DNA of 64,000 bases from a virus (lineage: Duplodnaviria; Heunggongvirae; Uroviricota; Caudoviricetes). The notes under the pieces were generated by a model, which made no database searches, was not told where the DNA came from, and saw only the letters and a list, made by a program, of their open reading frames with translations. The position numbers were made by a program, and so were the translations under genes. Where the stretch lies: positions 49,354 through 113,353 of IMG/VR virus record IMGVR_UViG_2627854282_000001; one strand, written 5' to 3'. This document shows, piece by piece, positions 8,457-25,298 of this stretch (positions are counted from its first letter, which is position 1; every line of letters begins with the position of its first letter).

Positions 8457-9455
8457 CTTCCCATGAACTGAAATCCAAAATGGCCTCGGGCGGGAAAATA
8501 GAAAAGCCCCCGCCGGGTCAAAAAGTGTTTTGGTCACAGCCGCGGAATTTACCCGCCCAGCCGGTCCGACCGTGCCCGCGCGCGAAATTTTAAGCGGGGC
8601 CCCCATAACCCCGTGCGGGGCCTGGCGCCGGCGCGCGGGCGGCGGGCGATTGAACCCACGCGGCGGGCGGCCACGGCGGCGGGCGGGCGGCGCGCTGGTG
8701 CGGCGCATGAAGATCGGAAGGCGCGACGCGTGCGCCTTCGAATGCAGGGCAAGCCATTGGCAAGCGTGCGATGCATGGCGACGGCAGGCATCGCCGAGCA
8801 AGGCGCGGCTGGTGCCTGTCATGCGTGGCGATGATTGGCCGCCCGTGGCGGGCGCGACCCTGCCCGGGCGCTGGCGCGCTATGGTGTAGGTGTGTGCAAG
8901 GTAGGTGCGGCATGCGGTGCGGTCACGCACGGCGGCGGCGCGCACGCCAGCGCATGGCGTCGCCTGGACCGGATGCCGATACGGACTAGACGCCAGCGCC
9001 GCCCTGCCCGGGCGGCGGGCGCATGGTGCGCATGTGGGCGCACACGCCAAGCGACTGCAGCGCATGCGGCCGGCCGGGCGCGCCGAGCTGGCGCGCGTCG
9101 GTCTGGCGACGAGCGCGGGCGCGGTCGACCACGATCCGCAAACGGTCGCCGGGCGCGGCGACCAGCGTTCGAAAACAGTGAACGCGCGCCGTCTATTGTG
9201 TACGTGAACAAATAGTGAAAATGGCGCGGACCGATTGGAAATCAGAAAGTAGCGGCGGCGCGCCGTGCCTCTGTACGGGCTTCTGTGTGGCGAATAGAGG
9301 CATATGGATTTTCGACCATGAAACCAGAATGAAAGCGCGTCCGATTTCCTGAAATATGAGCAGCGCGACATGCGCGGCTGTTGATTTCCACGCGTGAAAG
9401 GCCTATATTTTTCTTGCGGGCGAACTGCGTCCGCGCCGGGCTCTTGCCCTAACCC
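8457..9455. repeat. GC-rich (~75%) non-coding region with degenerate GCGCATG-cored and GGCGGGCGG repeats
   Basis: No credible ORF; the six-frame ORFs are R/A/G-rich junk. Repeats include GCGCATGAAG, GCGATGCATGGCG, CATGCGTGGCG, GGCATGCGGTGCGG, GCGCATGGCG, GGCGCATGGTGCGCATGTGGGCGCACA and GCGCATGCGGCC, with GGCGGGCGG runs at 8641-8700. Confidence 0.4.
9438..9455 (+). promoter_or_regulatory. leader motif copy 1 (GGGCTCTTGCCC-TAACC)
   Basis: Small GC hairpin plus TAACC immediately before the ATG at 9456; see findings. Confidence 0.5.
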
Positions 9456-9911
9456 ATGAGGATGAAAATGACCCACGTTTCCAAGCTCACCATTGACGAT
9501 GAATTCGACGCGCTGATTGCGGCGATGCGTGCCAACATCGCGCCGGCCAAGCGCCCGGCGGCGCCCGTGGTCGCCGCGCCTGTACAGCGCGCCCCGCGCT
9601 TTTGGTCCTGGCGCAAGGTCGGCGGCTTGACGTTCGTTCGCGTCGGGCAGCTTTCCATGTCGTTCTGCCTCACACGCAAGCACGGGCGGGCGCCAGCTGG
9701 CGGCAAGCGTGTGTTCGCCGCTCTCATGCTGGCGGCGGCGGTTGCCGTCGCTGGCCAGCTGGCGACGCGTGCGCCGGCTTGTCGTCTCGTCGCGACCGAC
9801 GCGGCGGGCAATGTCTATATTGCGGGTGCTGGCGACACGCCTGCGGACGCGCTGCAGGGCGCGGTCTATCCCGCCGACATGATCGAAGTGAAAATGATTT
9901 GCAGGAAGTGA
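9456..9911 (+). CDS. hypothetical protein (151 aa; start may be the ATG at 9468)
   Basis: First gene after the non-coding region, preceded by the GGGCTCTTGCCC-TAACC leader motif. Confidence 0.4.
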   Translation: MRMKMTHVSKLTIDDEFDALIAAMRANIAPAKRPAAPVVAAPVQRAPRFWSWRKVGGLTFVRVGQLSMSFCLTRKHGRAPAGGKRVFAALMLAAAVAVAGQLATRAPACRLVATDAAGNVYIAGAGDTPADALQGAVYPADMIEVKMICRK

Positions 9912-9944
9912 TTTCTTGCGGGCGCGCCGTGGCGGGCGCGCTAG

Positions 9945-9987
9945 TTGGCAATCACGCCAAGACGGGCGCTCGCCCTAACCGGAAAGG
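9945..9987 (+). promoter_or_regulatory. TTGGCAATCACGCCAA palindrome plus leader motif copy 2 (GGGCGCTCGCCC-TAACC-GGAAAGG)
   Basis: Palindrome at 9945-9960, motif at 9964-9987, ATG at 9995. Confidence 0.5.
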
Positions 9988-9994
9988 TCTACCA

Positions 9995-10456
9995 ATGTCG
10001 AGCAATCAAGCCACCATCGAAGCGGTAAACGCCCGCGTCGGCGCGAACATATTCGGCCGCGCCGAGACATTCTTGCGCAAGGCGACGGCCGGCGATGACG
10101 CGGCCGCACGCGCCGAACTGGTTTCGCTGCTTTCGTTCTTTCCGCCTTCTGCAACGCTCAATGATGGCGTGCTTTTCAATTGTTGCACGGCGCACGCGGA
10201 ACCCGTTTGGACTGAGTTCGCCGGGCTGGAAATCGCCGGTTGCATCGCCGACGACGACGGCGCGACAAGCGGCTTGCAATCGGCCTATGAGGCTCAATTC
10301 TTCACGGTCTACGCGCGTCGCTCGGAAGCCGATGGCGGTGACTGTGAAGCGATCACTGATATTTATGATGCCACGTTGATGCTTGCCGTTGCTGGCGAAC
10401 TGGCCTTGCGCTCCGGCTTGCCTTGCATCGTTCATCCGTCGCTTTCTGCCCGTTGA
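9995..10456 (+). CDS. hypothetical protein (153 aa)
   Basis: ATG at 9995 lies 8 nt after the GGAAAGG SD and leader motif (MSSNQATIEAVNARVGANIF...). It replaces the N-terminally extended ORF 9602..10456. Confidence 0.5.
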   Translation: MSSNQATIEAVNARVGANIFGRAETFLRKATAGDDAAARAELVSLLSFFPPSATLNDGVLFNCCTAHAEPVWTEFAGLEIAGCIADDDGATSGLQSAYEAQFFTVYARRSEADGGDCEAITDIYDATLMLAVAGELALRSGLPCIVHPSLSAR

Positions 10457-10489
10457 TTGCTTTCCCTGCCGCCGTGACGGGCGGCAGTA

Positions 10490-10534
10490 TTGGCAATCAC
10501 GCCAAACCGGGCTCTAGCCCTAACCTTGAAAGGA
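10490..10534 (+). promoter_or_regulatory. TTGGCAATCACGCCAA palindrome plus leader motif copy 3 (GGGCTCTAGCCC-TAACC-TTGAAAGGA)
   Basis: Palindrome at 10490-10505, motif at 10509-10534, ATG at 10542. Confidence 0.5.
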
Positions 10535-10541
10535 TGAGACC

Positions 10542-10649
10542 ATGAGTAAGCATGAAAAGCGCGAATTCGCCGAATCGCCGCGCGGGCGCATCCGCCGCGA
10601 TGAACGGCGCGCCGTCCGCGCCGCCAAGCGCGCTTTCGTCAACATGTGA
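10542..10649 (+). CDS. small basic peptide (35 aa), speculative
   Basis: ATG directly downstream of the leader motif and GAAAGGA SD; MSKHEKREFAESPRGRIRRDERRAVRAAKRAFVNM. Confidence 0.25.
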   Translation: MSKHEKREFAESPRGRIRRDERRAVRAAKRAFVNM

Positions 10650-10671
10650 GAACGGGAAAGGATCACGCATC

Positions 10672-11595
10672 ATGAACGCTCTTCCCTCATTCACCAGCGC
10701 GGCGCCGACGGGCGCGCCGTCCGCCATTGGCCAGAAAGCAATGCTTGCCGGTCTCTCAATCACCATGTGGGCCGGCCGCAAGCTGGACAAGAAAGTAACT
10801 GCCGAAGTGAACCACGCGCACGGCGCGGCGGCCGATGCCGCCCGCGTCACCAAATCGCTGGTCTCGAAACAGGCGCTGGCGGACATTCTGCGGATATCGA
10901 ACGCGGCGCGCGCCGTGCACTATGCGCGGACGCTTCCTTGGGCGGACTCGGGCGCGCGCATTCTCTGCAATGCCGGCTTTGCCGCCTATGCCGACGAGTT
11001 GCGGAAGCTGGAATATGAATTCCGCGACGCGGTCGACGCGTTCGTTTCCGGCTATGCCGATTATGTCGAGGCGGCGCGCATTGAGCTGAACGGCATGTTC
11101 CGCGACGACGACTATCCGCCGGCATCTTCGATCCGCGCGCGCTTCCGCTTTGAGCGGTCGATTTGGCCGATGCCGTCGGCGGCTGATTTCCGCGTCGACA
11201 TGATCGAAGGCGAGGCGGACCGAATCCGCGCCGACATTCAACGGCAATTCGATGCCGCCATGCGCACGGCAACCCGCGATGTGTTCGAACGCATCCAAGA
11301 GACCGTCGGCCACATGGTCGAAAAGTTGCGCGCCTTCGTGCCGCACTCGGGCAAGAAAGGCGACCGCGCGGAAGGCATCTTCCGCGACTCGCTTGTCGAA
11401 AACGTGCGCGATTTGGTCAAGCTGATGCCGTCGCTGAACGTGACCGGCGACGCCATGCTTGACGCGCTGGCCAAGCGCATGGAAACGCTTTGCCGCTTCG
11501 ACGCGGAAGACTTGCGGACCGACAAACAAGCCCGCCAGGACACGGCGGACGCGGCGGCCGGCATCCTTGCCGATATCTCTGACTTTCTCGCCTGA
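10672..11595 (+). CDS. DUF3150-like protein (307 aa)
   Basis: Internal ATG with GGAAAGGA SD. Size and sequence are typical of the DUF3150 family that accompanies MoxR/vWA pairs on mobile elements (recalled, not searched). Confidence 0.65.
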   Translation: MNALPSFTSAAPTGAPSAIGQKAMLAGLSITMWAGRKLDKKVTAEVNHAHGAAADAARVTKSLVSKQALADILRISNAARAVHYARTLPWADSGARILCNAGFAAYADELRKLEYEFRDAVDAFVSGYADYVEAARIELNGMFRDDDYPPASSIRARFRFERSIWPMPSAADFRVDMIEGEADRIRADIQRQFDAAMRTATRDVFERIQETVGHMVEKLRAFVPHSGKKGDRAEGIFRDSLVENVRDLVKLMPSLNVTGDAMLDALAKRMETLCRFDAEDLRTDKQARQDTADAAAGILADISDFLA

Positions 11596-11632
11596 TTGCT
11601 TGTTCTGGAGCGCGCGCGGCGCGCTCCAGCGC

Positions 11633-11677
11633 TGGCAATCATGCCAACTCGGGCACAAGCCCTAACCCTAGAGGAAA
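11633..11677 (+). promoter_or_regulatory. TGGCAATCATGCCAA palindrome plus leader motif copy 4 (GGGCACAAGCCC-TAACCC-TAGAGGA)
   Basis: Palindrome at 11633-11647, motif at 11651-11677, ATG at 11683. Confidence 0.5.
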
Positions 11678-11682
11678 CGACA

Positions 11683-12738
11683 ATGCAGCATGTCCTACCT
11701 AGCGCCGCCGGTTCATCCATCGCGGAAATCAGCGACGACTTGAACGCGCTTTTTGACTTGAATGCGCCCGCCTGGATTTGGGGCGCGCCCGGCATCGGCA
11801 AATCGGAATCGGTCTATCAAGTTGCCGCCGCCCGCGCCGCCGCCGCCGGGCATGATGCACATGTGACGGATATCCGCCTTTCGACTTTCGATCCGGTCGA
11901 CTTGCGCGGCTTGCCTGCCATTGTCGACGGTCTGACCAAATGGTTGCGGCCGGCGATTTGGCCGGCGCTGGACGCCACGGAAGAAACCATTTTGTTCTTT
12001 GACGAAATGGATCGCGCCGCGCCCGCCGTCGCCAATGCGGCGCTGCAAATCGTTCTGGAGCGGCGGATTGGCGAACACGTGTTGCCGCAATGCGTGCGCA
12101 TCGTTGCCGCCGGCAATGGTGAGACCGACCGGACGGGCACGCAGAAGATTTCCAGCGCGCAAGCAAACCGGTTCACGCATCTTTATGCCGTCGCCGACGC
12201 GGAAGCCACGGCGGCGCATCTGGCCAGGAAAGGCACGCATCCGGCCATGCCGGCTTTCTTGCGCTTCCGTGGCCATGCCACTGCGGACGGCAAGCCCGGC
12301 TTGATCCATGGCGCGCCAGCGGCCGGCGAAAAGGCTTTCCCGTCGCCGCGCGCCTGGGAACGCGTCGCCGGCATGATCCATCTTCCCGCGCCGCAACGGT
12401 CGCGGCTTGCTCGTGGCACGGTCGGAAGCGCCGCCGCCATCGAATGGGAAGCTTTCTTGCGGACCTATGCCGGAATCGCCGGCTTGATGGCCGATATCAT
12501 GGCGCGCCCGGAAAGCGCGGACGTTCCCGATGAACCGTCGCTGCAGTATGCGATTTCATCCGCGATCGCGCGCAAGGCCGATTTCGGCACGTGGCGCGCC
12601 ATTATGACTTATGCCGCCAGGATGCCGCGCGAATTCTGTATCTGGACCGTGCTTGATGCTGTCCGCCGCGATCCGGGCCTAAAGGCTACCGGCGAATATG
12701 GCGCATGGGCGGTTGCAAATCAGGATGTCGCGCTATGA
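11683..12738 (+). CDS. MoxR-like AAA+ ATPase (CbbQ/NorQ/CobS-like, 351 aa)
   Basis: Walker A IWGAPGIGKSE, Walker B ILFFDEMDRA and sensor VAAGNGETDR. The ATG at 11683 follows the leader motif and SD. Confidence 0.8.
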   Translation: MQHVLPSAAGSSIAEISDDLNALFDLNAPAWIWGAPGIGKSESVYQVAAARAAAAGHDAHVTDIRLSTFDPVDLRGLPAIVDGLTKWLRPAIWPALDATEETILFFDEMDRAAPAVANAALQIVLERRIGEHVLPQCVRIVAAGNGETDRTGTQKISSAQANRFTHLYAVADAEATAAHLARKGTHPAMPAFLRFRGHATADGKPGLIHGAPAAGEKAFPSPRAWERVAGMIHLPAPQRSRLARGTVGSAAAIEWEAFLRTYAGIAGLMADIMARPESADVPDEPSLQYAISSAIARKADFGTWRAIMTYAARMPREFCIWTVLDAVRRDPGLKATGEYGAWAVANQDVAL

Positions 12739-14168
12739 ATGCGGAAGCCGAAAAGCGGATTGTCCGCGCCCGTTCCATCCTACTTCAGACCGCGCCTTTT
12801 TACGGCGCTTTGGCGCTGTATCTGAAGCTTCAGGAAGCGCCCGAGCTGACCGACACAATGGCGACCGACGGCGCGCGGCTTGTCTATAACTCCAAATTCG
12901 TTTTGGAGTTGTCGGAACCCGAGTTGCTTTTCGTCGTCGCGCATGAGGTTTCGCACCTTTCGCACGGTCACCATGGCCGAATCGGGCGGCGCGATTTGTC
13001 AGACTTCAACCGGGCGGCGGACTACGCCATGAATGCCGGCTTGATCGCGGCGAAGATTGGCAAGATGCCGGACGGCATGCTTTACGATCCGCAATATGAC
13101 GGTATGGGCGCGGAAGAAATCTATTCGATACTCCAGCGCAAGGCACGGCAAGCGAAGCAACAGCAACAGGCGCAATCCGGCAAGCCGGGCGCGGACGGCG
13201 CTGGCCAGAACGGCAAGCCGGAAGTTGGCGCGGCCGGTCAGCCGGGCAAGCCGGATCACGCAAGCCAGGCACAAGCCACGGGCGGCGCGCCCGCCAGCGG
13301 TCAGCCGGCAAGCGCTGGCCAATCGGCCACCGACGCCACGCAAGGCCCGCCCACGGGCGCGCCAGCGCCCGGCAACGGGCAATCGGGCGCGGACGCCACG
13401 GCGGGCGCTGGCGCGCCTTCTGGCGGCGCTGGAGGCGGCAAGCCGTGGCACGGGATTGGCGGCATCATCGCGCCCGGCGACGGTAGCGACGCGGCGGCGG
13501 CGGAAAGCGCGGACGAATGGCAGATTCGGACCGCGCAAGCGGTTGCCGTGGCGAAAGCCGCCAACGCGGGAATCCTGCCCGGTCACCTTGCCCGCATGCT
13601 GGATGAAACCGCCGCGCCCGTGGTCGACGTGCGCGCCGTGCTGGCGGATTTGATCGATAGCCGCGTGTCGTCGGATTACTCGTTTCTGAAGCCGAACCGG
13701 CGCTTGATCGGTCACGGCTACTATCTGCCCGGGCAAATCGTTGACGGACTCGAGCATTTGGTTTGCGCGGTCGACACGTCGGGCAGCATGGATGACCATA
13801 TGCTTGCCAATTGCATGGCGGAACCGATTGCCGCGCTCGAGTCCGGCAAGGTCCAGCGCCTTACCGTCGTGTTTGCTGATACGCATGTTCGCCACGTTCA
13901 AGAGTTTGAAGCCGGCGACGACATCAAAGGCAAACTCCAGGCGAAAGGCGGCGGCGGCACGCGCTTCGATGACGCCATGCGCTGGATTGCCGACAATGCG
14001 GCGGACGCCACGGCGGCAATCTACCTCACCGACATGGAATGCAGCGTGTTCGGCGATGATCCGGGCTTGCCGGTGTATTGGGCGATCCACGGCGATTCCC
14101 GCCGCTTCAATGAACTGGCGGCGCGCCCGCCGTTTGGTGATTGCCTCTATATCGGGCGCTTGGAATGA
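12735..14168 (+). CDS. vWA-domain protein with N-terminal metallopeptidase-like domain (DUF2201-type, 477 aa)
   Basis: HExxH in VVAHEVSHLSHGHHG, a Q/G/P/A-rich linker, then a vWA MIDAS-like CAVDTSGSMDD...TRFD. Start overlaps the stop of the ATPase gene (ATGA). Confidence 0.75.
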   Translation: MNAEAEKRIVRARSILLQTAPFYGALALYLKLQEAPELTDTMATDGARLVYNSKFVLELSEPELLFVVAHEVSHLSHGHHGRIGRRDLSDFNRAADYAMNAGLIAAKIGKMPDGMLYDPQYDGMGAEEIYSILQRKARQAKQQQQAQSGKPGADGAGQNGKPEVGAAGQPGKPDHASQAQATGGAPASGQPASAGQSATDATQGPPTGAPAPGNGQSGADATAGAGAPSGGAGGGKPWHGIGGIIAPGDGSDAAAAESADEWQIRTAQAVAVAKAANAGILPGHLARMLDETAAPVVDVRAVLADLIDSRVSSDYSFLKPNRRLIGHGYYLPGQIVDGLEHLVCAVDTSGSMDDHMLANCMAEPIAALESGKVQRLTVVFADTHVRHVQEFEAGDDIKGKLQAKGGGGTRFDDAMRWIADNAADATAAIYLTDMECSVFGDDPGLPVYWAIHGDSRRFNELAARPPFGDCLYIGRLE

Positions 14169-14389
14169 AGCGCCACGGTCTAACGGAAGCCGAACGGCGC
14201 AAGATTTTGAAGCTTGGGCACTTGCTTGTGCCCACGCACATTTCGTGGCGGCGGGCTACGCAATTCATGCGGCTTGGCTATGGCGCTATCGATCCATTTC
14301 ATCAGCGCTGGCAGGGGCGATTGGATTTGACCGAAGCCGGGCGCGCAGCTCTCAACGCGCTGGATCCCGCAACCGCCCGCTTGGGCTAA
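14165..14389 (+). CDS. hypothetical protein (74 aa)
   Basis: ATG overlaps the upstream stop (MKRHGLTEAERRKILKLGHL...). Confidence 0.4.
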   Translation: MKRHGLTEAERRKILKLGHLLVPTHISWRRATQFMRLGYGAIDPFHQRWQGRLDLTEAGRAALNALDPATARLG

Positions 14390-14399
14390 CCGGAAAGGA
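14375..14399 (+). promoter_or_regulatory. leader motif copy 5 (GCCCGCTTGGGC-TAACC-GGAAAGGA)
   Basis: Stem polarity swapped (GCCC...GGGC), same TAACC and SD; ATG at 14408. Confidence 0.5.
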
Positions 14400-14407
14400 C
14401 TTTGGCT

Positions 14408-14868
14408 ATGACGTTCGATTTCGATCTGGCAACACAAATAAAGGCAATTGCCGAAAAGGTGAAAGACTCCAACCCATATTGGATTTCTACGCCAAATGGC
14501 GAATACGAAACCAATTCAGGGAACGATTGGTGTCGGACATGCGGCCTGTTCATGTTCAAACACTTGCGCCGCAAGGATCGCAGACGACGCGGCGATTATT
14601 TTTTCGACGGTGGCGACCGCGCGGAATCTGACAGTCACCGCTTTTGCGCCCATTGCGGATGCTGGTTGAGAATAAGCCTGACGGACCATGGCATCGAGGA
14701 GGAACTGTACGTTGGCCTGAATTCGATACCGGATGAGGCCTACAGCTTGGACATCATGATGAACTATGCATCGTGGGAGACCACGAAACTGAGATTCAGG
14801 ACTTCGCCCGACAATTCATGGCGCTGCCTGCGGTTCAGGCCTTCGTCGCGAAAGCCAAAGGCGGCTGA
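14408..14868 (+). CDS. Cys-rich (zinc-binding-like) hypothetical protein with frame discontinuity (possible frameshift/pseudogene)
   Basis: Lower-GC, clearly coding N-terminal part (CRTCGLFMF...CAHCGCW) in frame A. That frame has no stop until 15553, while the -1 frame reads protein-like ...DHETEIQDFARQFMALPAVQAFVAKAKGG and stops at 14866-14868. Confidence 0.35.
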
Positions 14869-14871
14869 GCC

Positions 14872-15123
14872 TTGCCGCGCCTTCCCGTCGAAATCCGCGT
14901 CACGCCATGGCGCAACGTCGATGGTCAACCCGAATGGGCTGACTCCCGCATTGCTGCCTATCGTATCTGGCAGGAATTCGACGGGCGGCACTGGTACCAG
15001 GCGCACGAATGGGAGTATCGCGGCGGCAATCGCGAGCGCTGCCAAGAGCAATGGATTCATGGCGTGCGCGGCTGGAGCAAAGATGCCGCGCCGCCCGAGG
15101 CCGGCGACGATCCGCCGCCATAA
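14872..15123 (+). CDS. Trp-rich hypothetical protein (83 aa, TTG start)
   Basis: Protein-like frame (EWADSRIAAYRIWQEFDGRHWYQAHEWEYRGG) ending in TAA 19 nt before the next gene's SD and ATG. Confidence 0.35.
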   Translation: MPRLPVEIRVTPWRNVDGQPEWADSRIAAYRIWQEFDGRHWYQAHEWEYRGGNRERCQEQWIHGVRGWSKDAAPPEAGDDPPP

Positions 15124-15142
15124 CAGAGAAAGGATTTGCTAC

Positions 15143-15553: not shown

Positions 15554-15562
15554 GCTTTTGGG

Positions 15563-15868
15563 ATGATGGTCAAATTCGCGCGCCCTATCCATCCCGGTGA
15601 AATGCTCAAGGAGGAATACCTTGTGCCACTCAACATGAGCGCTGGCGCCCTGGCAAAGCGTTTACTGGTTCCGCGCACCAGGATCGAAAGGATCATTGCC
15701 GGTCGTACCGGCATCACTGCCGATACCGCTTTGCGGCTGGCGCGATTCTTCAACACGACGCCGCAATTTTGGATGAACATGCAAATCGCCTTCGATCTGG
15801 AAACCGAGGCGACTCACCTGAAAACCACCTTGGACGTGATCACGCCAAGGCAACCGGAAACTATCTGA
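15563..15868 (+). CDS. HigA-family HTH antitoxin-like protein (101 aa)
   Basis: IHPGEMLKEEYLVPLNMSAGALAKRLLVPRTRIERIIAGRTGITADTALRLARFFNTTPQFWMNMQ is the HigA/VapI XRE-HTH signature; no RelE/HigB-like partner recognised. Confidence 0.7.
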   Translation: MMVKFARPIHPGEMLKEEYLVPLNMSAGALAKRLLVPRTRIERIIAGRTGITADTALRLARFFNTTPQFWMNMQIAFDLETEATHLKTTLDVITPRQPETI

Positions 15869-19104: not shown

Positions 19105-19510
19105 AGCTCTCAAGGTCTATTCCGTCGTGATCGTCTGGAACGACGACAACGACGAAGGCACCTATGGCGATACGGTCCGCGCCCGCGATTCCGAGCATGC
19201 CGAGCGCATCGTGAGGGCGCGCATGATGCGAAGCATGTGGGCGGAATGGCGCCGCGACAAGACGATGACGAAAAGCGATATCGCCGAACTCTACGCCACG
19301 CCGACCTATGACGGCGTCCAATATTTCGGCGAATGCGTCGAATGCAGCGAAGGCGCGTCATGGAAGGCGGTGGATATGGAGAAGGCGCTGCGGGCGCTCG
19401 CTCTAGCCTGCCAAGGGCACATCAGAAAGCTTGAACCGCATGAGACCGACGAGATCGCAGCGCCATTACAAGAGGCGCTGAAAGTCATCGCCGAGATCGA
19501 CGCGATTTGA
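19097..19510 (+). CDS. hypothetical protein (137 aa)
   Basis: Start overlaps the upstream stop; protein-like. Confidence 0.5.
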   Translation: MAEALKVYSVVIVWNDDNDEGTYGDTVRARDSEHAERIVRARMMRSMWAEWRRDKTMTKSDIAELYATPTYDGVQYFGECVECSEGASWKAVDMEKALRALALACQGHIRKLEPHETDEIAAPLQEALKVIAEIDAI

Positions 19511-19514
19511 AACC

Positions 19515-19547
19515 GGGCACTGGCCCTAACCTGAAAGGATCTGACAC
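19515..19547 (+). promoter_or_regulatory. leader motif copy 9 (GGGCACTGGCCC-TAACC-TGAAAGGA)
   Basis: ATG at 19548. Confidence 0.5.
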
Positions 19548-20072
19548 ATGGGTGACCGCTGCTATCTGGAACTGCGCCTGCGCGGGCGCATCGAAACCGT
19601 CGAGGCCTTCGAAAAGATCGTCGCGCTGTTCGAGGAAAACAACTGGCAGGTGGCCGAATACGACGCGGCCGGGCGCACGCTCGAAATGACGGAAAGCCTT
19701 GTCGTCGGCGACGCGAACGGCGAGGCGCCGACGTTCTACCTGAACGAATGCAACTATGCCGATATCGGCGAGGAAGAGGCGGAGCTGCAGGAGATCGGCA
19801 TCGCTTACGAAGTCTCGCACGAGGAAGGCGGCGATTACGGGGCCGGCGCGTGGTCATGGTCGTCGGCGCGCGGCAAGGTCGAAGCTGGCCGCATCAAAAA
19901 TCAAGGCGCATCGGTCTCGATAGCCGCACTGGAAGCCGCGCTCAAGCAGCCCGACCCGCTCGCCGCCGTCAAGGCCATTGTGGACGCCGGCAACGCGGCG
20001 GAGGGCACAGATTTGCCTGGCTATTCGCTGTCAGATGAGGTCAAGGCTTGGCTGGCCAAGGAGGGCAACTGA
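19548..20072 (+). CDS. hypothetical protein (174 aa)
   Basis: Leader motif plus GAAAGGA SD. Confidence 0.5.
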   Translation: MGDRCYLELRLRGRIETVEAFEKIVALFEENNWQVAEYDAAGRTLEMTESLVVGDANGEAPTFYLNECNYADIGEEEAELQEIGIAYEVSHEEGGDYGAGAWSWSSARGKVEAGRIKNQGASVSIAALEAALKQPDPLAAVKAIVDAGNAAEGTDLPGYSLSDEVKAWLAKEGN

Positions 20073-20872
20073 TGAGCAACCGCAAAGGGATTGGCGGGCA
20101 TCAGTCCGCGCGTGCCAACACCGAGGTCTGGCTGACCCCGCCCGATCTGCTGGAAGCGCTTGGCGGTGCCGAGGCGTTCGATCTGGACCCATGCGCGGCG
20201 CTGGGGCAACCATGGCCGACGGCGCGCCAGCATTTCACCATCGAGGATGACGGTCTCGCCCTGCCCTGGCATGGCCGCGTCTGGATGAATCCGCCCTACA
20301 CGTCGGGCATCATCGGGAAATGGCTTGGCAAGCTCGCCAAGCACGGCGACGGCATCGCCTTGACCTTTGCCCGGACCGAGACCGAGGCATTCCACCGTAC
20401 CGTCTGGGAGCAATGCGACGCGCTGCTCTTTCTGGAGGGTCGCCTCTTCTTCCATGTCGCCGAGGAGACGACTTTCAAGCTGAAGAACGGCGAGGTCGTC
20501 CGGGAAATCGTCGTTCCCAAGGGAGGGAAGGCGCCGGCCAATGGCGGCGCCCCGTCGGTCCTGTGCGCATATGGGATGGACAGCGCCGACATCCTGGCGG
20601 AGTCCGGTCTGCAAGGCAGCTTTGTGCCGCTTCGCTGGCGCGTTCTGACCTTCGGTTTCGAGACGGTCGGGACGTGGATCGAGGAGGTCATGGCACTGAT
20701 CGCCGGCCGCAACGAGCCGGTCACGCTCGATTGGCTGTACCGGAAGCTCGCCGGATCGCCGAAGGCGAAGCGCAATCCCAACTGGAAGGCGAAGATTCGC
20801 CAAACCCTCCAGCGCGGACCGTTCGAGGCCTTGGGCGGCGGCGTCTGGCAGCAAGCCAGCTTGGAGGTATGA
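20072..20872 (+). CDS. phage Dam-type N6-adenine DNA methyltransferase (266 aa)
   Basis: VWMNPPYT (NPPY motif IV) and overall resemblance to the phage N-6-adenine-methyltransferase family. The ATG at 20072 overlaps the upstream stop. Confidence 0.75.
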   Translation: MSNRKGIGGHQSARANTEVWLTPPDLLEALGGAEAFDLDPCAALGQPWPTARQHFTIEDDGLALPWHGRVWMNPPYTSGIIGKWLGKLAKHGDGIALTFARTETEAFHRTVWEQCDALLFLEGRLFFHVAEETTFKLKNGEVVREIVVPKGGKAPANGGAPSVLCAYGMDSADILAESGLQGSFVPLRWRVLTFGFETVGTWIEEVMALIAGRNEPVTLDWLYRKLAGSPKAKRNPNWKAKIRQTLQRGPFEALGGGVWQQASLEV

Positions 20873-20875
20873 GCC

Positions 20876-21094
20876 ATGTCGATGAAGGTTCCCACGAAAC
20901 TCCAAGAGCAGGCGAGCGCCGTCGGCATGACGGTCGAGAATGACGCCTACGACATCGGCTATTTCAAGCGTTATTTCGGCTGGCCGCGCGAAGGCGGCGA
21001 CCGCCAGCGGCAAGGCTGGAGCGATTGCAACCAGCAGCTCGCCGACGAAGGGCGCGACGCGCACCCAAACGCCGTGCACGAGGCAGCGCCATGA
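20876..21094 (+). CDS. hypothetical protein (72 aa)
   Basis: ATG 4 nt after the upstream stop. Confidence 0.4.
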   Translation: MSMKVPTKLQEQASAVGMTVENDAYDIGYFKRYFGWPREGGDRQRQGWSDCNQQLADEGRDAHPNAVHEAAP

Positions 21095-21330
21095 AGCGCA
21101 CAGCCAAGCTCTACGACTTCGCCGCCGAGCGCGACCACCGCGCCCAGGATTTGGCGGCGCTGCTGGAGACATCAGACGCGCTCGAATGTCCCCACTGCCA
21201 GGCGGAAACCAAGCCGTTCGGGGTCGACGTCAACAAGACCGTCAGCTACCGCTGCAAGCGCGGCCACGGCTGGCGCGTCGACGCCAACGGCGACCTGATG
21301 CGCGGCCTGAAAGGAAAGAGGTATTGGTGA
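21091..21330 (+). CDS. zinc-finger hypothetical protein (79 aa)
   Basis: CPHCQ...YRCKRGH pattern; ATG overlaps the upstream stop. Confidence 0.45.
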   Translation: MKRTAKLYDFAAERDHRAQDLAALLETSDALECPHCQAETKPFGVDVNKTVSYRCKRGHGWRVDANGDLMRGLKGKRYW

Positions 21331-21752
21331 TGACGGACAAGCACCCTCCCCTGTGCCGCTACTGCGGTAAGCCGATCGCAAAGAAGACCAAGAGCGTGTT
21401 CTTCGGCGACCAATTCGCCAGCCAAGCCCGTCTTCATGACGACATGTTCACCTACAAGGCGGAGCGGCCGCGCTCGAAAGAGGAAGCGCAACGGCTGCTC
21501 AACCAGCAGATCGTTTCGGTGAGATGGGCACGGGGCGAGGAGTACGCAGCCAAGCAAGCCGGCTTCGACCACATCACCCACGCGACAACATGGGACGGCG
21601 AGTCCTATGTCGACCCCTATTTCTGCAATGGCGCGCACGCCAAGGATTTTGCCTATCTGCATGCCAAGGCCGGCGCCGCCACGACCACCTACACGGCGGC
21701 AAACGCCAAGCGATTTGCCGAACAACAGGCGAAGAAAGGGGGGCAACCATGA
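21330..21752 (+). CDS. zinc-ribbon hypothetical protein (140 aa)
   Basis: CRYCGKPI...FCNGAH; overlapping start and stop. Confidence 0.45.
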   Translation: MTDKHPPLCRYCGKPIAKKTKSVFFGDQFASQARLHDDMFTYKAERPRSKEEAQRLLNQQIVSVRWARGEEYAAKQAGFDHITHATTWDGESYVDPYFCNGAHAKDFAYLHAKAGAATTTYTAANAKRFAEQQAKKGGQP

Positions 21753-21979
21753 TCAATCAGCAGAAAATCGCTCGCTGCGCAAAAGCCACCGACATCATCA
21801 TCGACAAGGCCGGCGAAGCTTCCGACGCGCTGCGCATCATCTTCACCAACGGCTACGGCATCCTCTCCGATCCGAGCAACGTTCGGGGGAACCTCCGCAC
21901 AGCAAAGGAAGCGATCGACGCCGCCTTGACCACGATGAAGGATACCGACTGGCCCACCCTCGCCGACTATGGCGAGTGA
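21749..21979 (+). CDS. hypothetical protein (76 aa)
   Basis: Coupled ATG (MINQQKIARCAKATDIIID...). Confidence 0.4.
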   Translation: MINQQKIARCAKATDIIIDKAGEASDALRIIFTNGYGILSDPSNVRGNLRTAKEAIDAALTTMKDTDWPTLADYGE

Positions 21980-22036
21980 GAAGACCGCAATCAAAATCCC
22001 CCTCGCCGCTTGGCATAGCCGAAAAGGAGTTGTTCG

Positions 22037-22576
22037 ATGAAGATCCACCTCGTCAAAGGCCGTGAATTCCAGTCCGACGCGCCGCGCGTCGAAGCGCATG
22101 CCATGCTGGCGACCGCGAACATGGAGGCCGCGTCAATGGTGAATACCATGCGCGCCGAGCGTGGCATGCCCGCAACAGCATCGGCCGACACATGGCAGCA
22201 AGGCCTTGCCGAGATGAACGCCGCAGGAGGTGGCGCGATCCCTGCCTCCGTGAAGATCGGCGAGACCGAGCTGAAGGGTCTCGCCATGCGCGACTGGCGC
22301 ATCTCGGACGGCCAGCACGACGGCATCACCTTCTTGCCCTGGCCGATGGAGATCGAGGCGAACCTGCCCGAGGCATTCACTATGCGCTTTTGGCATCCCG
22401 ACGACATCAACAAGACGCCGGGCAAGCAGCGCGAGGTCTGGATCGAGATCGACGGCGCCGCGGTGGTGATCCACTGCTACGATTCCGACCACGATGAGCC
22501 GGTGAACGTTCGCATCGAGCGCGACGGCATCAGCGTCGATTCCGACCGCATGACGGGCAAGATCACCATCGATTGA
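22037..22576 (+). CDS. hypothetical protein (179 aa)
   Basis: GAAAAGGAG SD 7 nt upstream. Confidence 0.5.
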   Translation: MKIHLVKGREFQSDAPRVEAHAMLATANMEAASMVNTMRAERGMPATASADTWQQGLAEMNAAGGGAIPASVKIGETELKGLAMRDWRISDGQHDGITFLPWPMEIEANLPEAFTMRFWHPDDINKTPGKQREVWIEIDGAAVVIHCYDSDHDEPVNVRIERDGISVDSDRMTGKITID

Positions 22577-22622
22577 GGCTTGCGCGGCGGCGCAAACACG
22601 CCCAGAACGGACCAGCATCCAC

Positions 22623-22654
22623 GGGCTCTTGCCCTCACCTAGAAGGAGTTTTTC
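22623..22654 (+). promoter_or_regulatory. leader motif copy 10 (GGGCTCTTGCCC-TCACC-TAGAAGGAG)
   Basis: ATG at 22655. A weaker variant (GCCGCTTGGCATAGCC-GAAAAGGAG) at 22005-22028 precedes the ATG at 22037. Confidence 0.45.
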
Positions 22655-23695
22655 ATGCCATCGAGCTTTGGCACAAATCACTTTGTAAACCTGGATGCCG
22701 CCTCTCGGTACTACGAGGCATATGGCGAAGGCGGACCAACGTCCATCAAGCAAATGATCGCGGAAGGCCGCATTGCCATCGGCCCACCTCCCTGCAAGCC
22801 AGATGAACGCGCCATCCTGAACCGTGAGGAGGGCCGATACTTTCGTGAGATCGTCGATGTCGCCCAACTGGCGCATCAGCCGGCCGCTGCCGCCGCCCCA
22901 AGCATGAAAAAGGAAGGAGCACGCATGAAGATTTCGAATGAGATCCTGGCCGTGCTGAGCACCGCCACCACGGACGGCCCGCGCCTGTTCCTGCATGGCG
23001 AACTCGATCGGAAGCTATATCAGGAGGTCAACAAAGTGCTGGAGGCCAACGGCGGCAAATGGAACCGCTCCGCTCGCGCCCATGTCTTCAGCGAACCGGC
23101 GGCCGAGGCGATCGAGCAGGTTCTGCTGACGGGCGAGTTTCAGAATATCAAGCAAGACCTTGGCCAGTTCGACACGCCCGATTTAGTCGCCGGTCGCGTG
23201 GCTGAACTTGCTGAGGTGCGCGAAAATATGACCGTCCTGGAGCCGAGCGCGGGGATTGGCAACCTCGTCGCCGCCATTCTCAAACGCCTGCCGGAGCCGG
23301 CGAGGATCATCATTCGCGCCAACGAGATCGATGAGAAACGCTGCCGCCAGCTTTCGGAACGCTTCGACATCGTGTCCGGCGTGCGCTGTGGCCGTGTCGA
23401 CTTCATGAAGGTCGACCCGGCTGCTGTCTCGCCCTACGATCGGGTGCTGATGAACCCGCCGTTCGCCAAACAGGCCGATATCGCCCACGTCATGCATGCC
23501 AGCCGCTTTGTGAAGCCGGGCGGCCGGCTTGTCTCGATCATGTCGGCGAGCGTCACCTTCCGCTCCGACGCCAGGACGAAGGCATTCCGCGAATTCGTTG
23601 ACGCCAACGAAGGCGTAATTGAGCGCCTGCCGGAAGGCGCCTTCAAGGAATCCGGCACCGCCGTGAACGCGGTGATCGTTTCGGTCAACCTCTGA
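22655..23695 (+). CDS. N6-adenine DNA methyltransferase (346 aa)
   Basis: FDTPDL...VLEPSAGIGNL (motif I) and LMNPPFAKQ (motif IV, NPPF). Leader motif plus GAAGGAG SD. Confidence 0.7.
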   Translation: MPSSFGTNHFVNLDAASRYYEAYGEGGPTSIKQMIAEGRIAIGPPPCKPDERAILNREEGRYFREIVDVAQLAHQPAAAAAPSMKKEGARMKISNEILAVLSTATTDGPRLFLHGELDRKLYQEVNKVLEANGGKWNRSARAHVFSEPAAEAIEQVLLTGEFQNIKQDLGQFDTPDLVAGRVAELAEVRENMTVLEPSAGIGNLVAAILKRLPEPARIIIRANEIDEKRCRQLSERFDIVSGVRCGRVDFMKVDPAAVSPYDRVLMNPPFAKQADIAHVMHASRFVKPGGRLVSIMSASVTFRSDARTKAFREFVDANEGVIERLPEGAFKESGTAVNAVIVSVNL

Positions 23696-23701
23696 ACTGC
23701 C

Positions 23702-23735
23702 GGGCTCTCGCCCTAACCTCGAAAGGAGAACCACC
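23702..23735 (+). promoter_or_regulatory. leader motif copy 11 (GGGCTCTCGCCC-TAACC-TCGAAAGGAG)
   Basis: ATG at 23736. Confidence 0.5.
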
Positions 23736-24182
23736 ATGACCACCATTGGGAAACTGCTGCTCGCCATCCGCGCCCTGATCCGCCGGCCAGCCGCCCACAA
23801 ATCTCTTGCGGAGTGGGCCGCCGAGATGGAAGCCGACAACGTCAAGCATACCGAGGAGCGCGCCGCCGCTCAGCGCGCTGGCCTGAACGAGGCGCAGGCC
23901 AATATATCGAAATTGCCGCCGATATGTGCGGCCTATCTGATCGCCGACATGTCGCCAATCATGATCAAGGCCGGCGAAATCGGCTACTATCCCGCGCCGC
24001 ACAAGCTGGACGTTCGCATCTGGAACGAACGGCGCGGCATCGAACCCTGGCACGTCAACGCCATGATGGCCGGCAGCGCCTTCGGCTGGGAGATTCCGGC
24101 CGCCGACTGCGACGAGCCGTCCAACCGGCGCTGCGACCCATACAAGGGCACACCTTGGGAGAAAGGGGCTGTTGCAGCATGA
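23736..24182 (+). CDS. hypothetical protein (148 aa)
   Basis: Leader motif plus GAAAGGAG SD. Confidence 0.45.
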   Translation: MTTIGKLLLAIRALIRRPAAHKSLAEWAAEMEADNVKHTEERAAAQRAGLNEAQANISKLPPICAAYLIADMSPIMIKAGEIGYYPAPHKLDVRIWNERRGIEPWHVNAMMAGSAFGWEIPAADCDEPSNRRCDPYKGTPWEKGAVAA

Positions 24183-24655
24183 TCGCTCTCGGTCCTCTCG
24201 TCGTTCTCATCATCATCGGCGCCGTCGTCGCGATCGGCTTGATCCCGGCGCGGCCGGAAGACCATCTCCTCGACTTCCGGGCCAAATGCCGCAAGGATGG
24301 CCTGACCTTCCAGGAGACCGAGGCAGCGCTCGGCGCCAGGATCGCCTTCGTCAGCCTCCGCCGGCGCGCCTCGAACCTATGCGTCGACGCCGGCGGCCAC
24401 GTCACTCGGGACCAGATCAACGAGATCGCCAGGCATCTGGCGATCGGTCTGGCGGCCTCGCACGGCCAGGATGCCGCGAAACGGTTCATCGCCTGGGTGG
24501 AATCCTGCCCCGACGAGGAGATCCTCTATGACGACGCCCGCGGCCGCCGTCACCACAGGATTTCGGGCGAGCTCGCCCGGAAGGGACTGCACGCCAACAA
24601 AAAGGCTGCTATGCACGAGGACTTCAAGCACGCTCTGAAGGTCATCAAGCGGTAG
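24179..24655 (+). CDS. membrane-anchored hypothetical protein (158 aa)
   Basis: N-terminal MIALGPLVVLIIIGAVVAIGLI transmembrane segment; coupled start. Confidence 0.45.
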   Translation: MIALGPLVVLIIIGAVVAIGLIPARPEDHLLDFRAKCRKDGLTFQETEAALGARIAFVSLRRRASNLCVDAGGHVTRDQINEIARHLAIGLAASHGQDAAKRFIAWVESCPDEEILYDDARGRRHHRISGELARKGLHANKKAAMHEDFKHALKVIKR

Positions 24656-24665
24656 AATTGCAATC

Positions 24666-24694
24666 GGGCTCTCGCCCTCACCCGTGGAGGTCAC
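24666..24694 (+). promoter_or_regulatory. leader motif copy 12 (GGGCTCTCGCCC-TCACCC-GTGGAGG)
   Basis: ATG at 24695. Confidence 0.45.
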
Positions 24695-24988
24695 ATGGAC
24701 GGAGTTACAAAGATGCCGGCACGATTCGTCTTCCGACGCTGGAACGCCGACGATTTCGCGGCAGCGCTGAAAGCGGCCGGCTTATCGAGAAACGACTTCA
24801 TGTTCATGACCGGCCGCCATTCGGATGGCGTCGCGAAGTACCTCGATCCGAACGACAGCAGCTCGCCGACGCTGGCGGAGATGATCCTGGTCGAGCTGGC
24901 CGGCCGGAGCCCAGAGCGGCGCGCCGAGATCATGCAACTGGCCGACGAGAAGATGATCGACATGGGCAACCGGAAGGATCGCCGATGA
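24695..24988 (+). CDS. hypothetical protein (97 aa)
   Basis: Leader motif (CTCACC variant) plus GGAGG SD. Confidence 0.4.
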   Translation: MDGVTKMPARFVFRRWNADDFAAALKAAGLSRNDFMFMTGRHSDGVAKYLDPNDSSSPTLAEMILVELAGRSPERRAEIMQLADEKMIDMGNRKDRR

Positions 24989-25236
24989 GCGACTTCAAGG
25001 ACTGGATGGCGCGCACCGGGCTGACCCCGAAGACCGTGCAGGAGCATTTCGGGGTCTCCCACAACGTGACTTGGACGCTCGGCAAGGAAGACGCCGAGCT
25101 CGATCTGCGGACACGGCTGGCTATGTCGGCCGTCGCCGCCGGCCTCCAACCCTGGGCGCCGGAGAATGCCCACGAGCCGGAAGCGGTCCGCCCTGTGCTC
25201 GATGCTGTCCGGAAGGCGCTGGCGCCGCCGGAATAA
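24985..25236 (+). CDS. hypothetical protein (83 aa)
   Basis: ATG overlapping the upstream stop (MSDFKDWMARTGLTPKTVQEHF...). Confidence 0.4.
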   Translation: MSDFKDWMARTGLTPKTVQEHFGVSHNVTWTLGKEDAELDLRTRLAMSAVAAGLQPWAPENAHEPEAVRPVLDAVRKALAPPE

Positions 25237-25265
25237 AAACGGCGATGTTACCGGATAATTACCCC

Positions 25266-25298
25266 GCCCCCTTGGGCTAACCGAAAGGAGATTTTCAG
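25266..25298 (+). promoter_or_regulatory. leader motif copy 13 (GCCCCCTTGGGC-TAACC-GAAAGGAG)
   Basis: Swapped stem polarity; ATG at 25299. Confidence 0.5.

Follow-up and report, generated by a model that had tools for sequence, protein, structure and literature searches.

What does a short hairpin do when it stands just ahead of the Shine-Dalgarno (SD) sequence at one gene after another of a single phage module? The question is raised by a stretch of Caudoviricetes DNA of 64,000 nucleotides (nt) from IMG/VR record IMGVR_UViG_2627854282_000001 (positions 49,354 to 113,353), referred to here, at its full 64 kb, as the window, which corresponds to ~510.8–574.8 kb of Mesorhizobium plurifarium contig CCMZ01000056.1 and is a prophage-like element. 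A previous inspection of the letters alone (the sequence-only reading) had listed 13 copies and a weaker fourteenth of a hairpin-TAACC-SD leader motif in the plus-strand module at 9.4–25.7 kb, all of which we located where it had placed them (Table 1); we call this element class A. Comparison with related prophages indicates that the motif is genuine and selected, because these relatives keep the hairpin shape through compensating mutations. We consider it likely that the motif works at the RNA level and belongs to the translation-initiation regions along an early polycistronic mRNA, and we tentatively take the best explanation as a whole to be a cis-acting, operator-like RNA element with a specific trans factor.

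A compact hairpin cassette precedes early genes

Each class-A element consists of a C, a GC stem of four base pairs (bp), a 4-nt loop (nCUn), UAACC, 3–6 nt, an extended SD and the ATG, as in the example CC-GGGCUCUUGCCC-UAACC, shown within its flanks. The 14 copies (13 strong, 1 weak) all lie on the plus strand and span 9438–25282. An anchored alignment of 13 of them gives the conserved core C-GGGC-nCTn-GCCC-TAACC followed by an A-rich SD; farther upstream nothing is conserved, the 5′ flank of the hairpin being just a G-poor run that ends in C or CC. Where the sequence-only reading had allowed a stem of 4–5 bp and a loop of 2–4 nt, the stem is 4 bp and the loop always 4 nt (a 5-bp stem with a 2-nt loop is sterically impossible), the perfect form being present in 12 of the 14 copies, with copy 7 (C.C outer pair) and copy 10 (degenerate) as exceptions. 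The conserved C before the stem and the conserved C and U at loop positions 2 and 3 had gone unremarked. TAACC lies 12–22 nt from the ATG (median 16), and the SD, GAAAGGAG, is long and complementary to the 16S 3′ end. Downstream of copy 1, a gene start at 9468 (SD GAGGA, NCBI call) is more likely than the 9456 first proposed. The TAA of copy 5 doubles as the stop codon of an annotated open reading frame (ORF) at 14165–14389, the orthologue of copy 10 in M. silamurunense (locus L029) reads TGCC-ACTT-GGCA-TAACC, and the TCACC variant of copy 11 is retained in its orthologues in L029, L030 and L127.

The placement of the copies follows a simple rule: the operon leader and 12 of 12 intergenic gaps of at least 37 nt have a copy, 0 of 15 junctions that are at most 22 nt long or overlapping have one, and the remaining copy overlaps a small annotated ORF at its end. 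All copies, in every locus, are sense relative to the genes. Nine exact matches to GCCCTAACC occur, all on the plus strand between 9446 and 23718; allowing at most one mismatch gives 17 matches, compared with 7.4 ± 2.8 in shuffled sequence, and 17 was reached in 0 of 100 shuffles.

When both strands of the 64 kb were searched with a covariance model of class A (R1), all filters being off, just the 14 sites were returned (27.5–42 bits), with the next best match at 13.5 bits. The search found no copy in the minus-strand modules or the right-hand plus module, which agrees with what the sequence-only reading had reported. Applied to 80 related phage loci (1.34 Mb, both strands), R1 gave two strong matches (~41 bits), both in L045, and only one other match (15 bits, E 0.55). 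Rfam 15 gave no matches at gathering score over the window and, in 9300–25800, only chance-level matches (E 0.45–3), none on a motif copy. Literature searches turned up no description of the class-A motif, megablast of 9000–26000 against phage and plasmid collections gave no matches, a viral-contig scan with a 451-amino-acid (aa) protein found no relatives, and the motif was absent from three GTDB relatives found via the beta clamp (35–47% identity).

An exact-pattern scan of IMG/VR yielded mostly unrelated matches. Among these, an unrelated low-GC viral family (GC ~0.41–0.43; L004–L008, L011, L013, L014, L018, L021, L024 and L026) shares an exact GGGCGCTCGCCCTAACC, which there forms part of an extended conserved stretch (tggYgg...aattccgtgc) and is followed by neither an SD nor an ATG; a tRNA scan of L004, L007 and L008 found none. 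Two metagenome contigs, L034 (2660–2700, minus strand) and L035 (1112–1152, minus strand), gave strong R1 matches of 30–32 bits (GGGCTCTCGCCCTAACC + GAGAGGAG), preceded by an AT-rich promoter-like stretch and with no obvious ATG downstream.

Compensatory changes maintain the hairpin in related prophages

The same element recurs in the syntenic modules of at least 6 other elements. Such modules were recovered from M. silamurunense (L029), Mesorhizobium sp. L-8-10 (L030), two Logan assemblies (L125 and L127), a metagenome contig with DUF3150 and AAA homologues (L044), two contigs with a homologue of the module's helix-turn-helix (HTH) protein (L038 and L042) and an IMG/VR prophage with two class-A copies (L045). 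Protein identity to the window ranges from ~90% down to ~50%, yet the motif core is nearly unchanged.

We aligned 65 copies, drawn from 10 loci, without gaps; 96.9% of the cells in the stem are paired. Pair 2 is GC in 54 copies and CG in 11, pair 3 is GC in 46 and CG in 16, and one-sided changes are absent. The observed paired fraction or covariation score was reached in 0 of 500 shuffles, pairing drops to 21–70% in slid registers, and RNAalifold recovers the class-A helix. Stem variants in the relatives include GCCC/GGGC, GGCC/GGCC, GCGC/GCGC, TGCC/GGCA and CGGC/GCCG, the last of these, together with additional GGCC stems, being contributed by matches that only the covariance model retrieves. 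Changes are also seen at orthologous sites: the GGGC stem of copy 12 is flipped to GCCC-TCTT-GGGC at L029 11335, copy 13 corresponds to GGCC/GGCC stems at L127 18225 and L030 16382, and copy 8 has a flipped stem at L030 9508. Furthermore, when T[AC]ACC+SD+start sites were picked in five loci without requiring a hairpin, 52 of the 59 sense sites had a perfect 4-bp hairpin directly 5′ (antisense, 0 of 3), so the hairpin is not an artefact of selection; 49 of these 52 combine a 4-bp stem with a 4-nt loop.

Conservation outside the stem is position-specific. Loop position 2 is C in 63 of 65 copies and position 3 is U in 53 of 65, while positions 1 and 4 vary; each position of U-A-A-C-C is kept in 59–65 of the 65, and the three positions that follow are free. 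Extension of the stem beyond 4 bp is blocked by a conserved 5′ C opposite a 3′ U. Selection on hairpin structure rather than on sequence, which the sequence-only reading had proposed from the window, is thus supported by covariation across the 65 copies and by flipped stems at orthologous sites, and the covariance-model search of related Rhizobiales prophages that it had suggested recovered both the motif and the covariation.

The motif lies along a predicted early transcript

A promoter scan of 9000–26000 found a sole sigma70-like plus-strand promoter, located at the module head 29 nt upstream of copy 1, with its −35 (TTG..TT) and −10 kept in L125, L127 and L030; copy 1 lies at ~+22 to +38 from its predicted start. 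Given this conserved promoter upstream of copy 1, the motif is expected in the 5′ untranslated region and in intercistronic RNA, and class A is very probably transcribed. The module would be read mainly as one long early transcript from this promoter, with a possible internal promoter near 15907. A 5′-terminal leader hairpin between promoter and copy 1, predicted in both minimum free energy (MFE) and centroid folds, is conserved in L125 and L127. The class-A hairpin itself appears in the MFE fold for 12 of 14 contexts with the SD mostly unpaired; pairing between UAACC and SD (CC..GG) in some folds is weak, at just 2–3 bp.

Could each copy be a compact promoter, used by host polymerase with the element's own sigma factor or resembling the hairpin promoters of phage N4, so that every gene forms its own unit? 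The element does encode a sigma-70-family protein (425 aa, 41097–42374, minus strand), as the sequence-only reading had stated, a terminator-like GC hairpin lies upstream of the motif in some gaps, and in the PeSL (promoter-early stem-loop) cassettes of T4-type phages every ORFan is preceded by a promoter, a GGGG/CCCC-type stem-loop and an SD (PMC2839356). Across 13 aligned copies, however, information content upstream of the hairpin is ~zero at −60 to −18, with no −35/−10 signal; gaps of 37–43 nt are filled by the motif and a promoter would not fit; stem covariation is unexpected for a double-stranded element; and a canonical promoter, conserved in four elements, already stands before copy 1. 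TAACC as a sigma70 −10, which the sequence-only reading had discounted, is ruled out by the lack of −35 conservation and by a start that would fall in or after the SD. N4-type hairpin promoters are read by a giant virion RNA polymerase; the 64-kb window holds no giant virion-type RNA polymerase gene, its largest ORF being a C5 methylase of 780 aa. Also ruled out were a sigma54 reading of TGGCAATCACGCC (GG-to-GC spacing of 9, not 12) and a sigma70 reading of TTGGCA with a downstream hexamer (no −10-like hexamer at 17–19 bp). A promoter role therefore strikes us as extremely improbable.

Intrinsic terminators have a stable GC-rich stem, usually of at least 5 bp, followed directly by a U tract. 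With a 4-bp stem and UAACC instead of a U tract, class A is ruled out as such a terminator, a view the sequence-only reading had already taken; a terminator scan reported none of the 14 copies, and the sole terminator-like intergenic site (17384–17399) lies upstream of a copy. Two further pairings were rejected. Because the SD GAAAGGAG already reaches the 16S 3′ terminus, TAACC lies beyond the rRNA end and cannot pair with it, and a loop-SD pseudoknot is ruled out sterically, its own covariation being inconsistent too.

The presence of one copy for each independently initiated cistron, together with a fixed hairpin and a conserved single-stranded 3′ flank of the kind seen in Cas6/Csy4-type or RegB-type recognition, would also suit an RNA processing site, at which a host or phage endoribonuclease cuts the early transcript at the hairpin and UAACC into monocistronic units; the GC-rich hairpins that follow several stop codons in the module could then shield the upstream 3′ ends. 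The sequence-only reading had named both this role and a binding site for an RNA-binding or translational regulator, and both are plausible. We nevertheless judge processing improbable, since a copy also occupies the operon leader, where separation is needless, Pfam and PHROG scans recognised no ribonuclease in the module, and a cut in or after UAACC would leave just 3–6 nt ahead of the SD.

Copies mark the junctions of mosaic gene cassettes

Class-A copies sit exactly at the junctions of mosaic gene cassettes. Relative to the T of TAACC, homology blocks between the window and L029, L125, L127 or L030 repeatedly start 7–18 nt upstream or stop 4–27 nt downstream, and the order of genes changes from one element to another across such motif junctions. 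The motif thus explains the position of mosaic junctions in these prophages. Class-A copies have also moved with the downstream gene into L045, whose genome otherwise carries the class-B cassettes described below.

Such observations, along with the PeSL precedent (PMC2839356), could be taken to mean that the cassette is primarily a DNA-level recombination linker, its ~20–35 bp letting phage recombinases swap gene cassettes and its hairpin being read in single-stranded DNA, in the manner of integron attC sites or IS200/IS605 ends. This would leave the fixed SD distance, the orientation rule and the leader copy all unexplained. Moreover, the gaps consist largely of the motif, so that any block boundary there necessarily coincides with it, and Pfam scans of the window showed neither an HUH transposase nor an integron-integrase domain. 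We hold a primarily recombinational role to be quite improbable; recombination is likely a side effect, in which the shared cassette marks, and probably promotes, junctions of gene-cassette exchange between related prophages. Hairpins of the REP/RAYT, IS200/IS605 and integron attC families, which have a conserved flanking tetranucleotide and an HUH transposase or integron integrase and usually lie after genes or in both orientations, were likewise rejected, the class-A copies being all sense and before start codons.

Sister cassettes share a common design

Class A is one of several lineage-specific hairpin/linker/SD cassettes, a fact that, like the placement at mosaic junctions, the sequence-only reading had missed. 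Class B is a mini-hairpin at the same pre-SD position before early genes of L045, L046, L047, L126 and L128, and also of L055, L056 and L086, as exemplified by GCCAATCGTGGC (GCC-A-ATCG-T-GGC), with AACAAC and then GGAG behind it. The loop pattern, R-A-Y-N-G-U, is conserved, and the stems around it covary (GCC, CGC, CTC, GTC, ATC, GGC, AGC, CCT and others). One tally gives 11–14 sense compared with 0–2 antisense copies per locus, another 7–14 sense copies per locus. On the sense strand, G.U pairs (~48) far exceed A.C pairs (~15), and G.U closing pairs are frequent; this excess suggests that the sense strand folds in single-stranded form, as RNA.

Class D, present in other relatives and in Sinorhizobium phage 16-3, has an optional 5–7 bp hairpin with a C-N-ACCAA loop, followed by CCACCACA, GAGGAGAC and ATG. 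Phage 16-3 (L130, NC_011103 30652–55713) is the nearest cultured phage via the beta clamp (42% identity), and its clamp gene sits within a repressor-controlled rightward early operon. Its PR operon has seven sense class-D copies and its PL operon has two; CCACCACA + GAGGAGAC + 4–5 nt + ATG precedes at least 9 of its early genes, and occurs also in L101 and L097, while several phage 16-3 genes have the linker and SD without the hairpin. No mention of this variant was found in the searchable literature. The design shared across classes is a hairpin, a G-poor A/C linker (UAACC, AACAAC or CCACCACA) and a strong SD, with loop and linker being lineage-specific.

This common architecture brings in the main rival to a recognised operator, namely a factor-independent structural cassette. 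Here the mini-hairpin and the G-poor A/C linker would insulate the ribosome-binding site (RBS) and keep a strong SD unpaired irrespective of the coding sequence upstream and, after RNase E cuts, would provide each cistron with a protective 5′ hairpin or block RNase E scanning; the copies would resemble one another through shared ancestry and recombination between copies, not through recognition. The persistence of the architecture through classes with different sequences is what such a cassette predicts, as are the hairpin-less linker and SD sites of phage 16-3, the mixing of classes in the single genome L045, the mostly unpaired SD in the folds and the separate 5′-terminal hairpin at the operon head, and no conserved candidate factor was found. 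A structural cassette would, however, be expected to have longer and variable stems, whereas class A has exactly 4 bp, a C/U mismatch that stops extension and a loop of exactly 4 nt. Nor would it call for loop positions 2–3 and UAACC to be near-invariant beside free neighbours across proteins that are ~50% identical, or for a tetraloop that we take to lie outside the thermodynamically favoured families. On balance we find this explanation rather unlikely, and it is the strongest competitor to the operator-like reading.

Candidate trans factors

The window encodes a ProQ/FinO protein (46584–46976; Pfam E = 6.6e-22), which the sequence-only reading had noted and by implication linked to the motif. 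ProQ/FinO proteins typically bind terminal hairpins that carry a 3′ pyrimidine tail, and the class-A hairpins are internal, not 3′-terminal. In a word-based search, ProQ homologues were confined to the window, to L129, which is its closest relative and shares a sample with L125, and to two further short contigs, and no match came from a viral scan with the ProQ protein; a link between ProQ and the motif appears weak. Pfam and PHROG scans of the module proteins showed no RNA-binding domain either.

Directly downstream of copy 3 lies an unannotated Arg-rich ORF of 35 aa (MSKHEKREFAESPRGRIRRDERRAVRAAKRAFVNM), which is conserved with synonymous changes in L125, L127, L030 and L044 and is under purifying selection; homologues of 60–66 aa occur in class-B prophages. 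Its product is, speculatively, a candidate RNA binder.

Arg-rich peptides are also the readers of lambdoid nut sites, at which boxA lies 5′ of a boxB hairpin and the ~100-aa N protein has NusA- and RNA polymerase-binding regions. By analogy, class A might be a boxB-like hairpin bound by an Arg-rich peptide, such as the product of the 10542 ORF, which would modify RNA polymerase and so let it read through GC-rich intergenic hairpins. The resemblance extends to a short GC stem, a conserved loop, lineage-specific classes, a leader copy downstream of the early promoter and GC-rich hairpins after some stop codons, and a conserved 35–66 aa Arg-rich family does occur in class-A and class-B Mesorhizobium elements. 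Nut sites, however, come one or two to an operon and at no fixed distance from an SD, whereas class A numbers 14 sites per operon, each 3–6 nt from the SD. No conserved boxA partner and no protein of N length with those binding regions were found in these elements, the apparent boxA resemblance (GCUCUU..UAAC) vanishes in flipped-stem copies, only one terminator-like site exists across the gaps, and the peptide, of only 35 aa, tracks DUF3150/DUF932. Nut-like antitermination accordingly seems very improbable to us. Processing, nut-like, promoter and primarily recombinational roles are all less likely than the operator and insulator readings.

An operator-like element as the favoured explanation

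We favour an operator-like reading because strict geometry and the invariant loop C-U and UAACC are conserved at ~50% protein identity. Fixed geometry combined with position-specific conservation resembles protein-recognised hairpins, and the class-A hairpin has the geometry of an operator hairpin, with a fixed shape, an invariant loop and flank, and a position beside the RBS; the lineage-specific variants are as expected of matched factor/site pairs. According to this model, the operon leader and every untranslated gap of the early transcript would carry the same cassette, and because the cassette joins the hairpin and UAACC to SD and ATG, these would form part of the initiation region of each independently initiated cistron. 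The reader would be a sequence-specific trans factor, most probably an RNA-binding protein or peptide that the phage itself encodes, which, bound 3–6 nt from the SD, would set or block 30S access and possibly mRNA fate, such that all early-operon cistrons are controlled together. From sequence comparison we infer transcription, action as RNA, the existence of a trans factor and the direction of its effect; as a mechanism, an operator read by a specific factor is a proposal that we advance with reserve.

Several observations weigh against it. Many of the 65 aligned copies are orthologues and, because a given stem type often passes down together with the gene that follows it, we estimate ~8–10 independent compensatory events, not 28. 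Class-A stems are almost all G-C and nearly without G.U pairs, so class A itself does not settle whether the hairpin forms in RNA or in single-stranded DNA. The consensus of the promoter scan was E. coli-type, and alphaproteobacterial or phage-sigma promoters may escape it. No trans factor was identified, and no candidate was confirmed among the proteins examined. A word-based search, which may miss distant homologues, found no ProQ homologue in the NCBI genomes that hold the motif-bearing L030 and L029, and this weakens the link to ProQ implied by the sequence-only reading. The gene for the Arg-rich peptide always lies just upstream of a DUF3150/DUF932 gene, i.e. it tracks that gene rather than the hairpins, and the peptide was not found in class D/E loci or phage 16-3, which rules it out as a universal partner. 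Lastly, classes are mixed in one genome, L045 having two class-A among ~nine class-B copies, and within the window class-B-like hairpins (TGGCAATCACGCCA) stand 3–4 nt upstream of three class-A copies; such mixing is easier to explain if the cassette needs no phage-specific factor, or if the factor is a repressor only.

A broader proposal, which we regard as unlikely, is that rhizobial temperate phages use orthogonal 'translation codes', with a small RNA-binding regulator in each lineage, possibly an Arg-rich peptide such as the product of the 10542 ORF, reading its own mini-hairpin (classes A, B and D), set ahead of the SD at each early gene that is translated independently. If true, one molecule would switch a whole mosaic operon on or off post-transcriptionally, and acquired gene cassettes would fall under control simply by carrying the hairpin cassette. 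A dedicated reader, if one exists, would turn the motif into a post-transcriptional switch for the whole operon, from which compact orthogonal parts for RBS control could be taken; if there is no reader, the cassette would be a standard RBS insulator of natural origin, with which phages can accommodate foreign genes. The covariance model can be used to annotate true gene starts, including those of small ORFs overlooked by annotation.

Gene content and neighbouring features

Products of the 9.4–25.7 kb plus-strand module include DUF3150, an AAA_5 ATPase (gene 11683), DUF2201/VWA, the HTH protein, a phage beta clamp, Dam and N6 methyltransferases and numerous small proteins without assigned function. 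The remaining window encodes DnaB, Toprim primase, SNF2 helicase, SbcC-like, RecE-like and HerA proteins as well as PAPS-reductase-like, C5 methylase, GcrA-like, MT-A70, CI-like repressor and radical SAM proteins. The methylation toolkit is unusually rich, comprising Dam-like, N6_Mtase, C5 methylase and MT-A70 enzymes together with the GcrA-like regulator.

Gene calls conflict at 14165–15553, where NCBI has 14165–14389, 14872–15123 and 15143–15553 and the alternative is a single 381-aa ORF. The latter begins at ATG 14408, directly after a motif copy; relatives have 2–3 genes in the corresponding region, and before 15143 there is a degenerate TAACA with an SD and no hairpin. An intergenic unit of ~75–80 nt recurs at three gaps and consists of a stop codon, a GC-rich 8–11 bp hairpin without a U tract, a TTGGCAATCA(C/T)GCCAA hairpin and the class-A motif. 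In several related loci, adjacent genes share an identical coding tail, ..AAGGCGGAGGGCCGCTGAC ATG, in which ..AKAEGR-stop overlaps the next start; this suggests tandem paralogues whose conserved C-terminus also provides the SD of the next gene.

Table 1 Class-A copies and other features of the window and related loci (window positions unless a locus is named; for class-A copies, the position of the T of TAACC is in parentheses)
Feature	Position	Strand	Sequence or description	Associated gene or context	Bits
Copy 1	9438–9454 (9450)	+	GGGC-TCTT-GCCC-TAACC	operon leader, gene 9468	38.3
Copy 2	9964–9980 (9976)	+	GGGC-GCTC-GCCC-TAACC	gene 9995	32.3
Copy 3	10509–10525 (10521)	+	GGGC-TCTA-GCCC-TAACC	small Arg-rich ORF 10542	38.7
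Copy 4	11651–11667 (11663)	+	GGGC-ACAA-GCCC-TAACC	AAA_5 ATPase gene 11683	35.8
Copy 5	14375–14391 (14387)	+	GCCC-GCTT-GGGC-TAACC, two middle pairs flipped	ATG 14408	39
Copy 6	15957–15973 (15969)	+	GGGC-TCTT-GCCC-TAACC	phage beta-clamp gene 15996	34.4
Copy 7	17412–17428 (17424)	+	CGGC-TCTT-GCCC-TAACC, outer pair C.C	gene 17445	41.8
Copy 8	17714–17730 (17726)	+	GGGC-GCTC-GCCC-TAACC	gene 17749	42
Copy 9	19515–19531 (19527)	+	GGGC-ACTG-GCCC-TAACC	gene 19548, 37-nt gap	37.7
Copy 10 (weak)	22004–22020 (22016)	+	cGCC-GCTT-GGCa-TAGCC	gene 22037	31
Copy 11	22623–22639 (22635)	+	GGGC-TCTT-GCCC-TCACC	N6-methyltransferase gene 22655	38.4
Copy 12	23702–23718 (23714)	+	GGGC-TCTC-GCCC-TAACC	gene 23736	35.5
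Copy 13	24666–24682 (24678)	+	GGGC-TCTC-GCCC-TCACC	gene 24695	27.5
Copy 14	25266–25282 (25278)	+	GCCC-CCTT-GGGC-TAACC, flipped stem	gene 25299	37.7
Sigma70-like promoter	9381–9409	+	TTGATT-N17-TATATT (promoter scan)	module head	
Predicted 5′-terminal leader hairpin	9417–9435	+	GCGGGCG-AACTG-CGTCCGC	between promoter and copy 1	
Possible internal promoter	15907–15935	+	TTGACG-N17-GATAAC (read from sequence)	same arrangement before clamp copy	
Accessory hairpin	9945–9960	+	TTGGC-AATCAC-GCCAA, loop class-B-like	3 nt upstream of copy 2	
Accessory hairpin	10490–10505	+	TTGGC-AATCAC-GCCAA	upstream of copy 3	
Accessory hairpin	11633–11647	+	TGGCA-ATCA-TGCCA	upstream of copy 4	
Accessory hairpin	15941–15952	+	TGCC-GATT-GGCA	4 nt upstream of copy 6, after possible promoter 15907–15935	
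Arg-rich ORF, 35 aa	10542–10649	+	no Pfam or PHROG match	unannotated	
Repeated intergenic unit	9906–9987, 10454–10530, 11593–11672		~75–80 nt	genes 9995, 10542, 11683; orthologous sites in L125, L127, L030	
Methylation toolkit genes and GcrA-like regulator	20072–20872, 22655–23695, 34929–37271, 40166–40846, 37676–38212				
AKAEGR coding tails	L125 12794, 13359; L127 11961, 12350, 12855; L029 5921, 6676, 7064; L128 3416, 4009; L126 9256, 9570				

Comparison with known systems

Several phage operators adjoin an SD, among them the gene 43 hairpin of T4 and RB69, the targets of T4 RegA and the coat-protein hairpins of MS2 and PP7; in these systems initiation is blocked when the protein binds. The RegA sites are not hairpins, and through them a single protein controls many early mRNAs simultaneously. 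Class A is like these operators in being a small hairpin of fixed geometry with few invariant loop nucleotides beside the RBS. It differs in number, hairpin operators of the gene 43, MS2 and PP7 type occurring once per genome and class A 13–14 times per operon, and we found no described precedent for a single operon with 13–14 identical operators.

PeSL cassettes of T4-type phages are ~100 bp long and lie between the stop and the ATG of early/accessory ORFs, where they combine a strong sigma70 promoter (−35, −10 and an AT-rich upstream region), a G/C stem-loop acting as terminator and an SD; found at junctions of shuffled gene modules, they were proposed to be recombination linkers (Arbiol et al. 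2010, PMC2839356). Class A likewise is a repeated stem-loop and SD cassette at module junctions, but it has no promoter signal, a 4-bp hairpin and no U tract.

Among described phenomena, the start-associated sequences (SAS/ESAS) of cluster K mycobacteriophages come closest; they are a short asymmetric motif present in 11–19 copies per genome, in one orientation (Pope et al. 2011, PMC3203893). The SAS, a 13-nt GGGATAGGAGCCC that includes the SD, is confined to the non-structural half of the genome, where it lies a few nt from start codons, overlaps the RBS and precedes non-homologous genes; the extended part has subcluster-specific variants, and for the ESAS inverted repeats the authors saw no support for an RNA hairpin and favoured DNA binding (PMC3203893). 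Class-A copies are similar in having one orientation, lying 12–22 nt from the ATG and being confined to one early/accessory module, a likeness of descriptive class and not of homology: there is no sequence similarity between class A and SAS, and the host phylum differs. Furthermore, what is conserved in class A is a hairpin, situated upstream of the SD and showing clear compensatory changes. Start-codon-adjacent phage repeats have thus been known since 2011; what class A adds to the earlier cases is compensatory evidence for a defined hairpin, a rule of one copy per untranslated gap in an early operon, and lineage-specific variants, including one in the genetically tractable Sinorhizobium phage 16-3.

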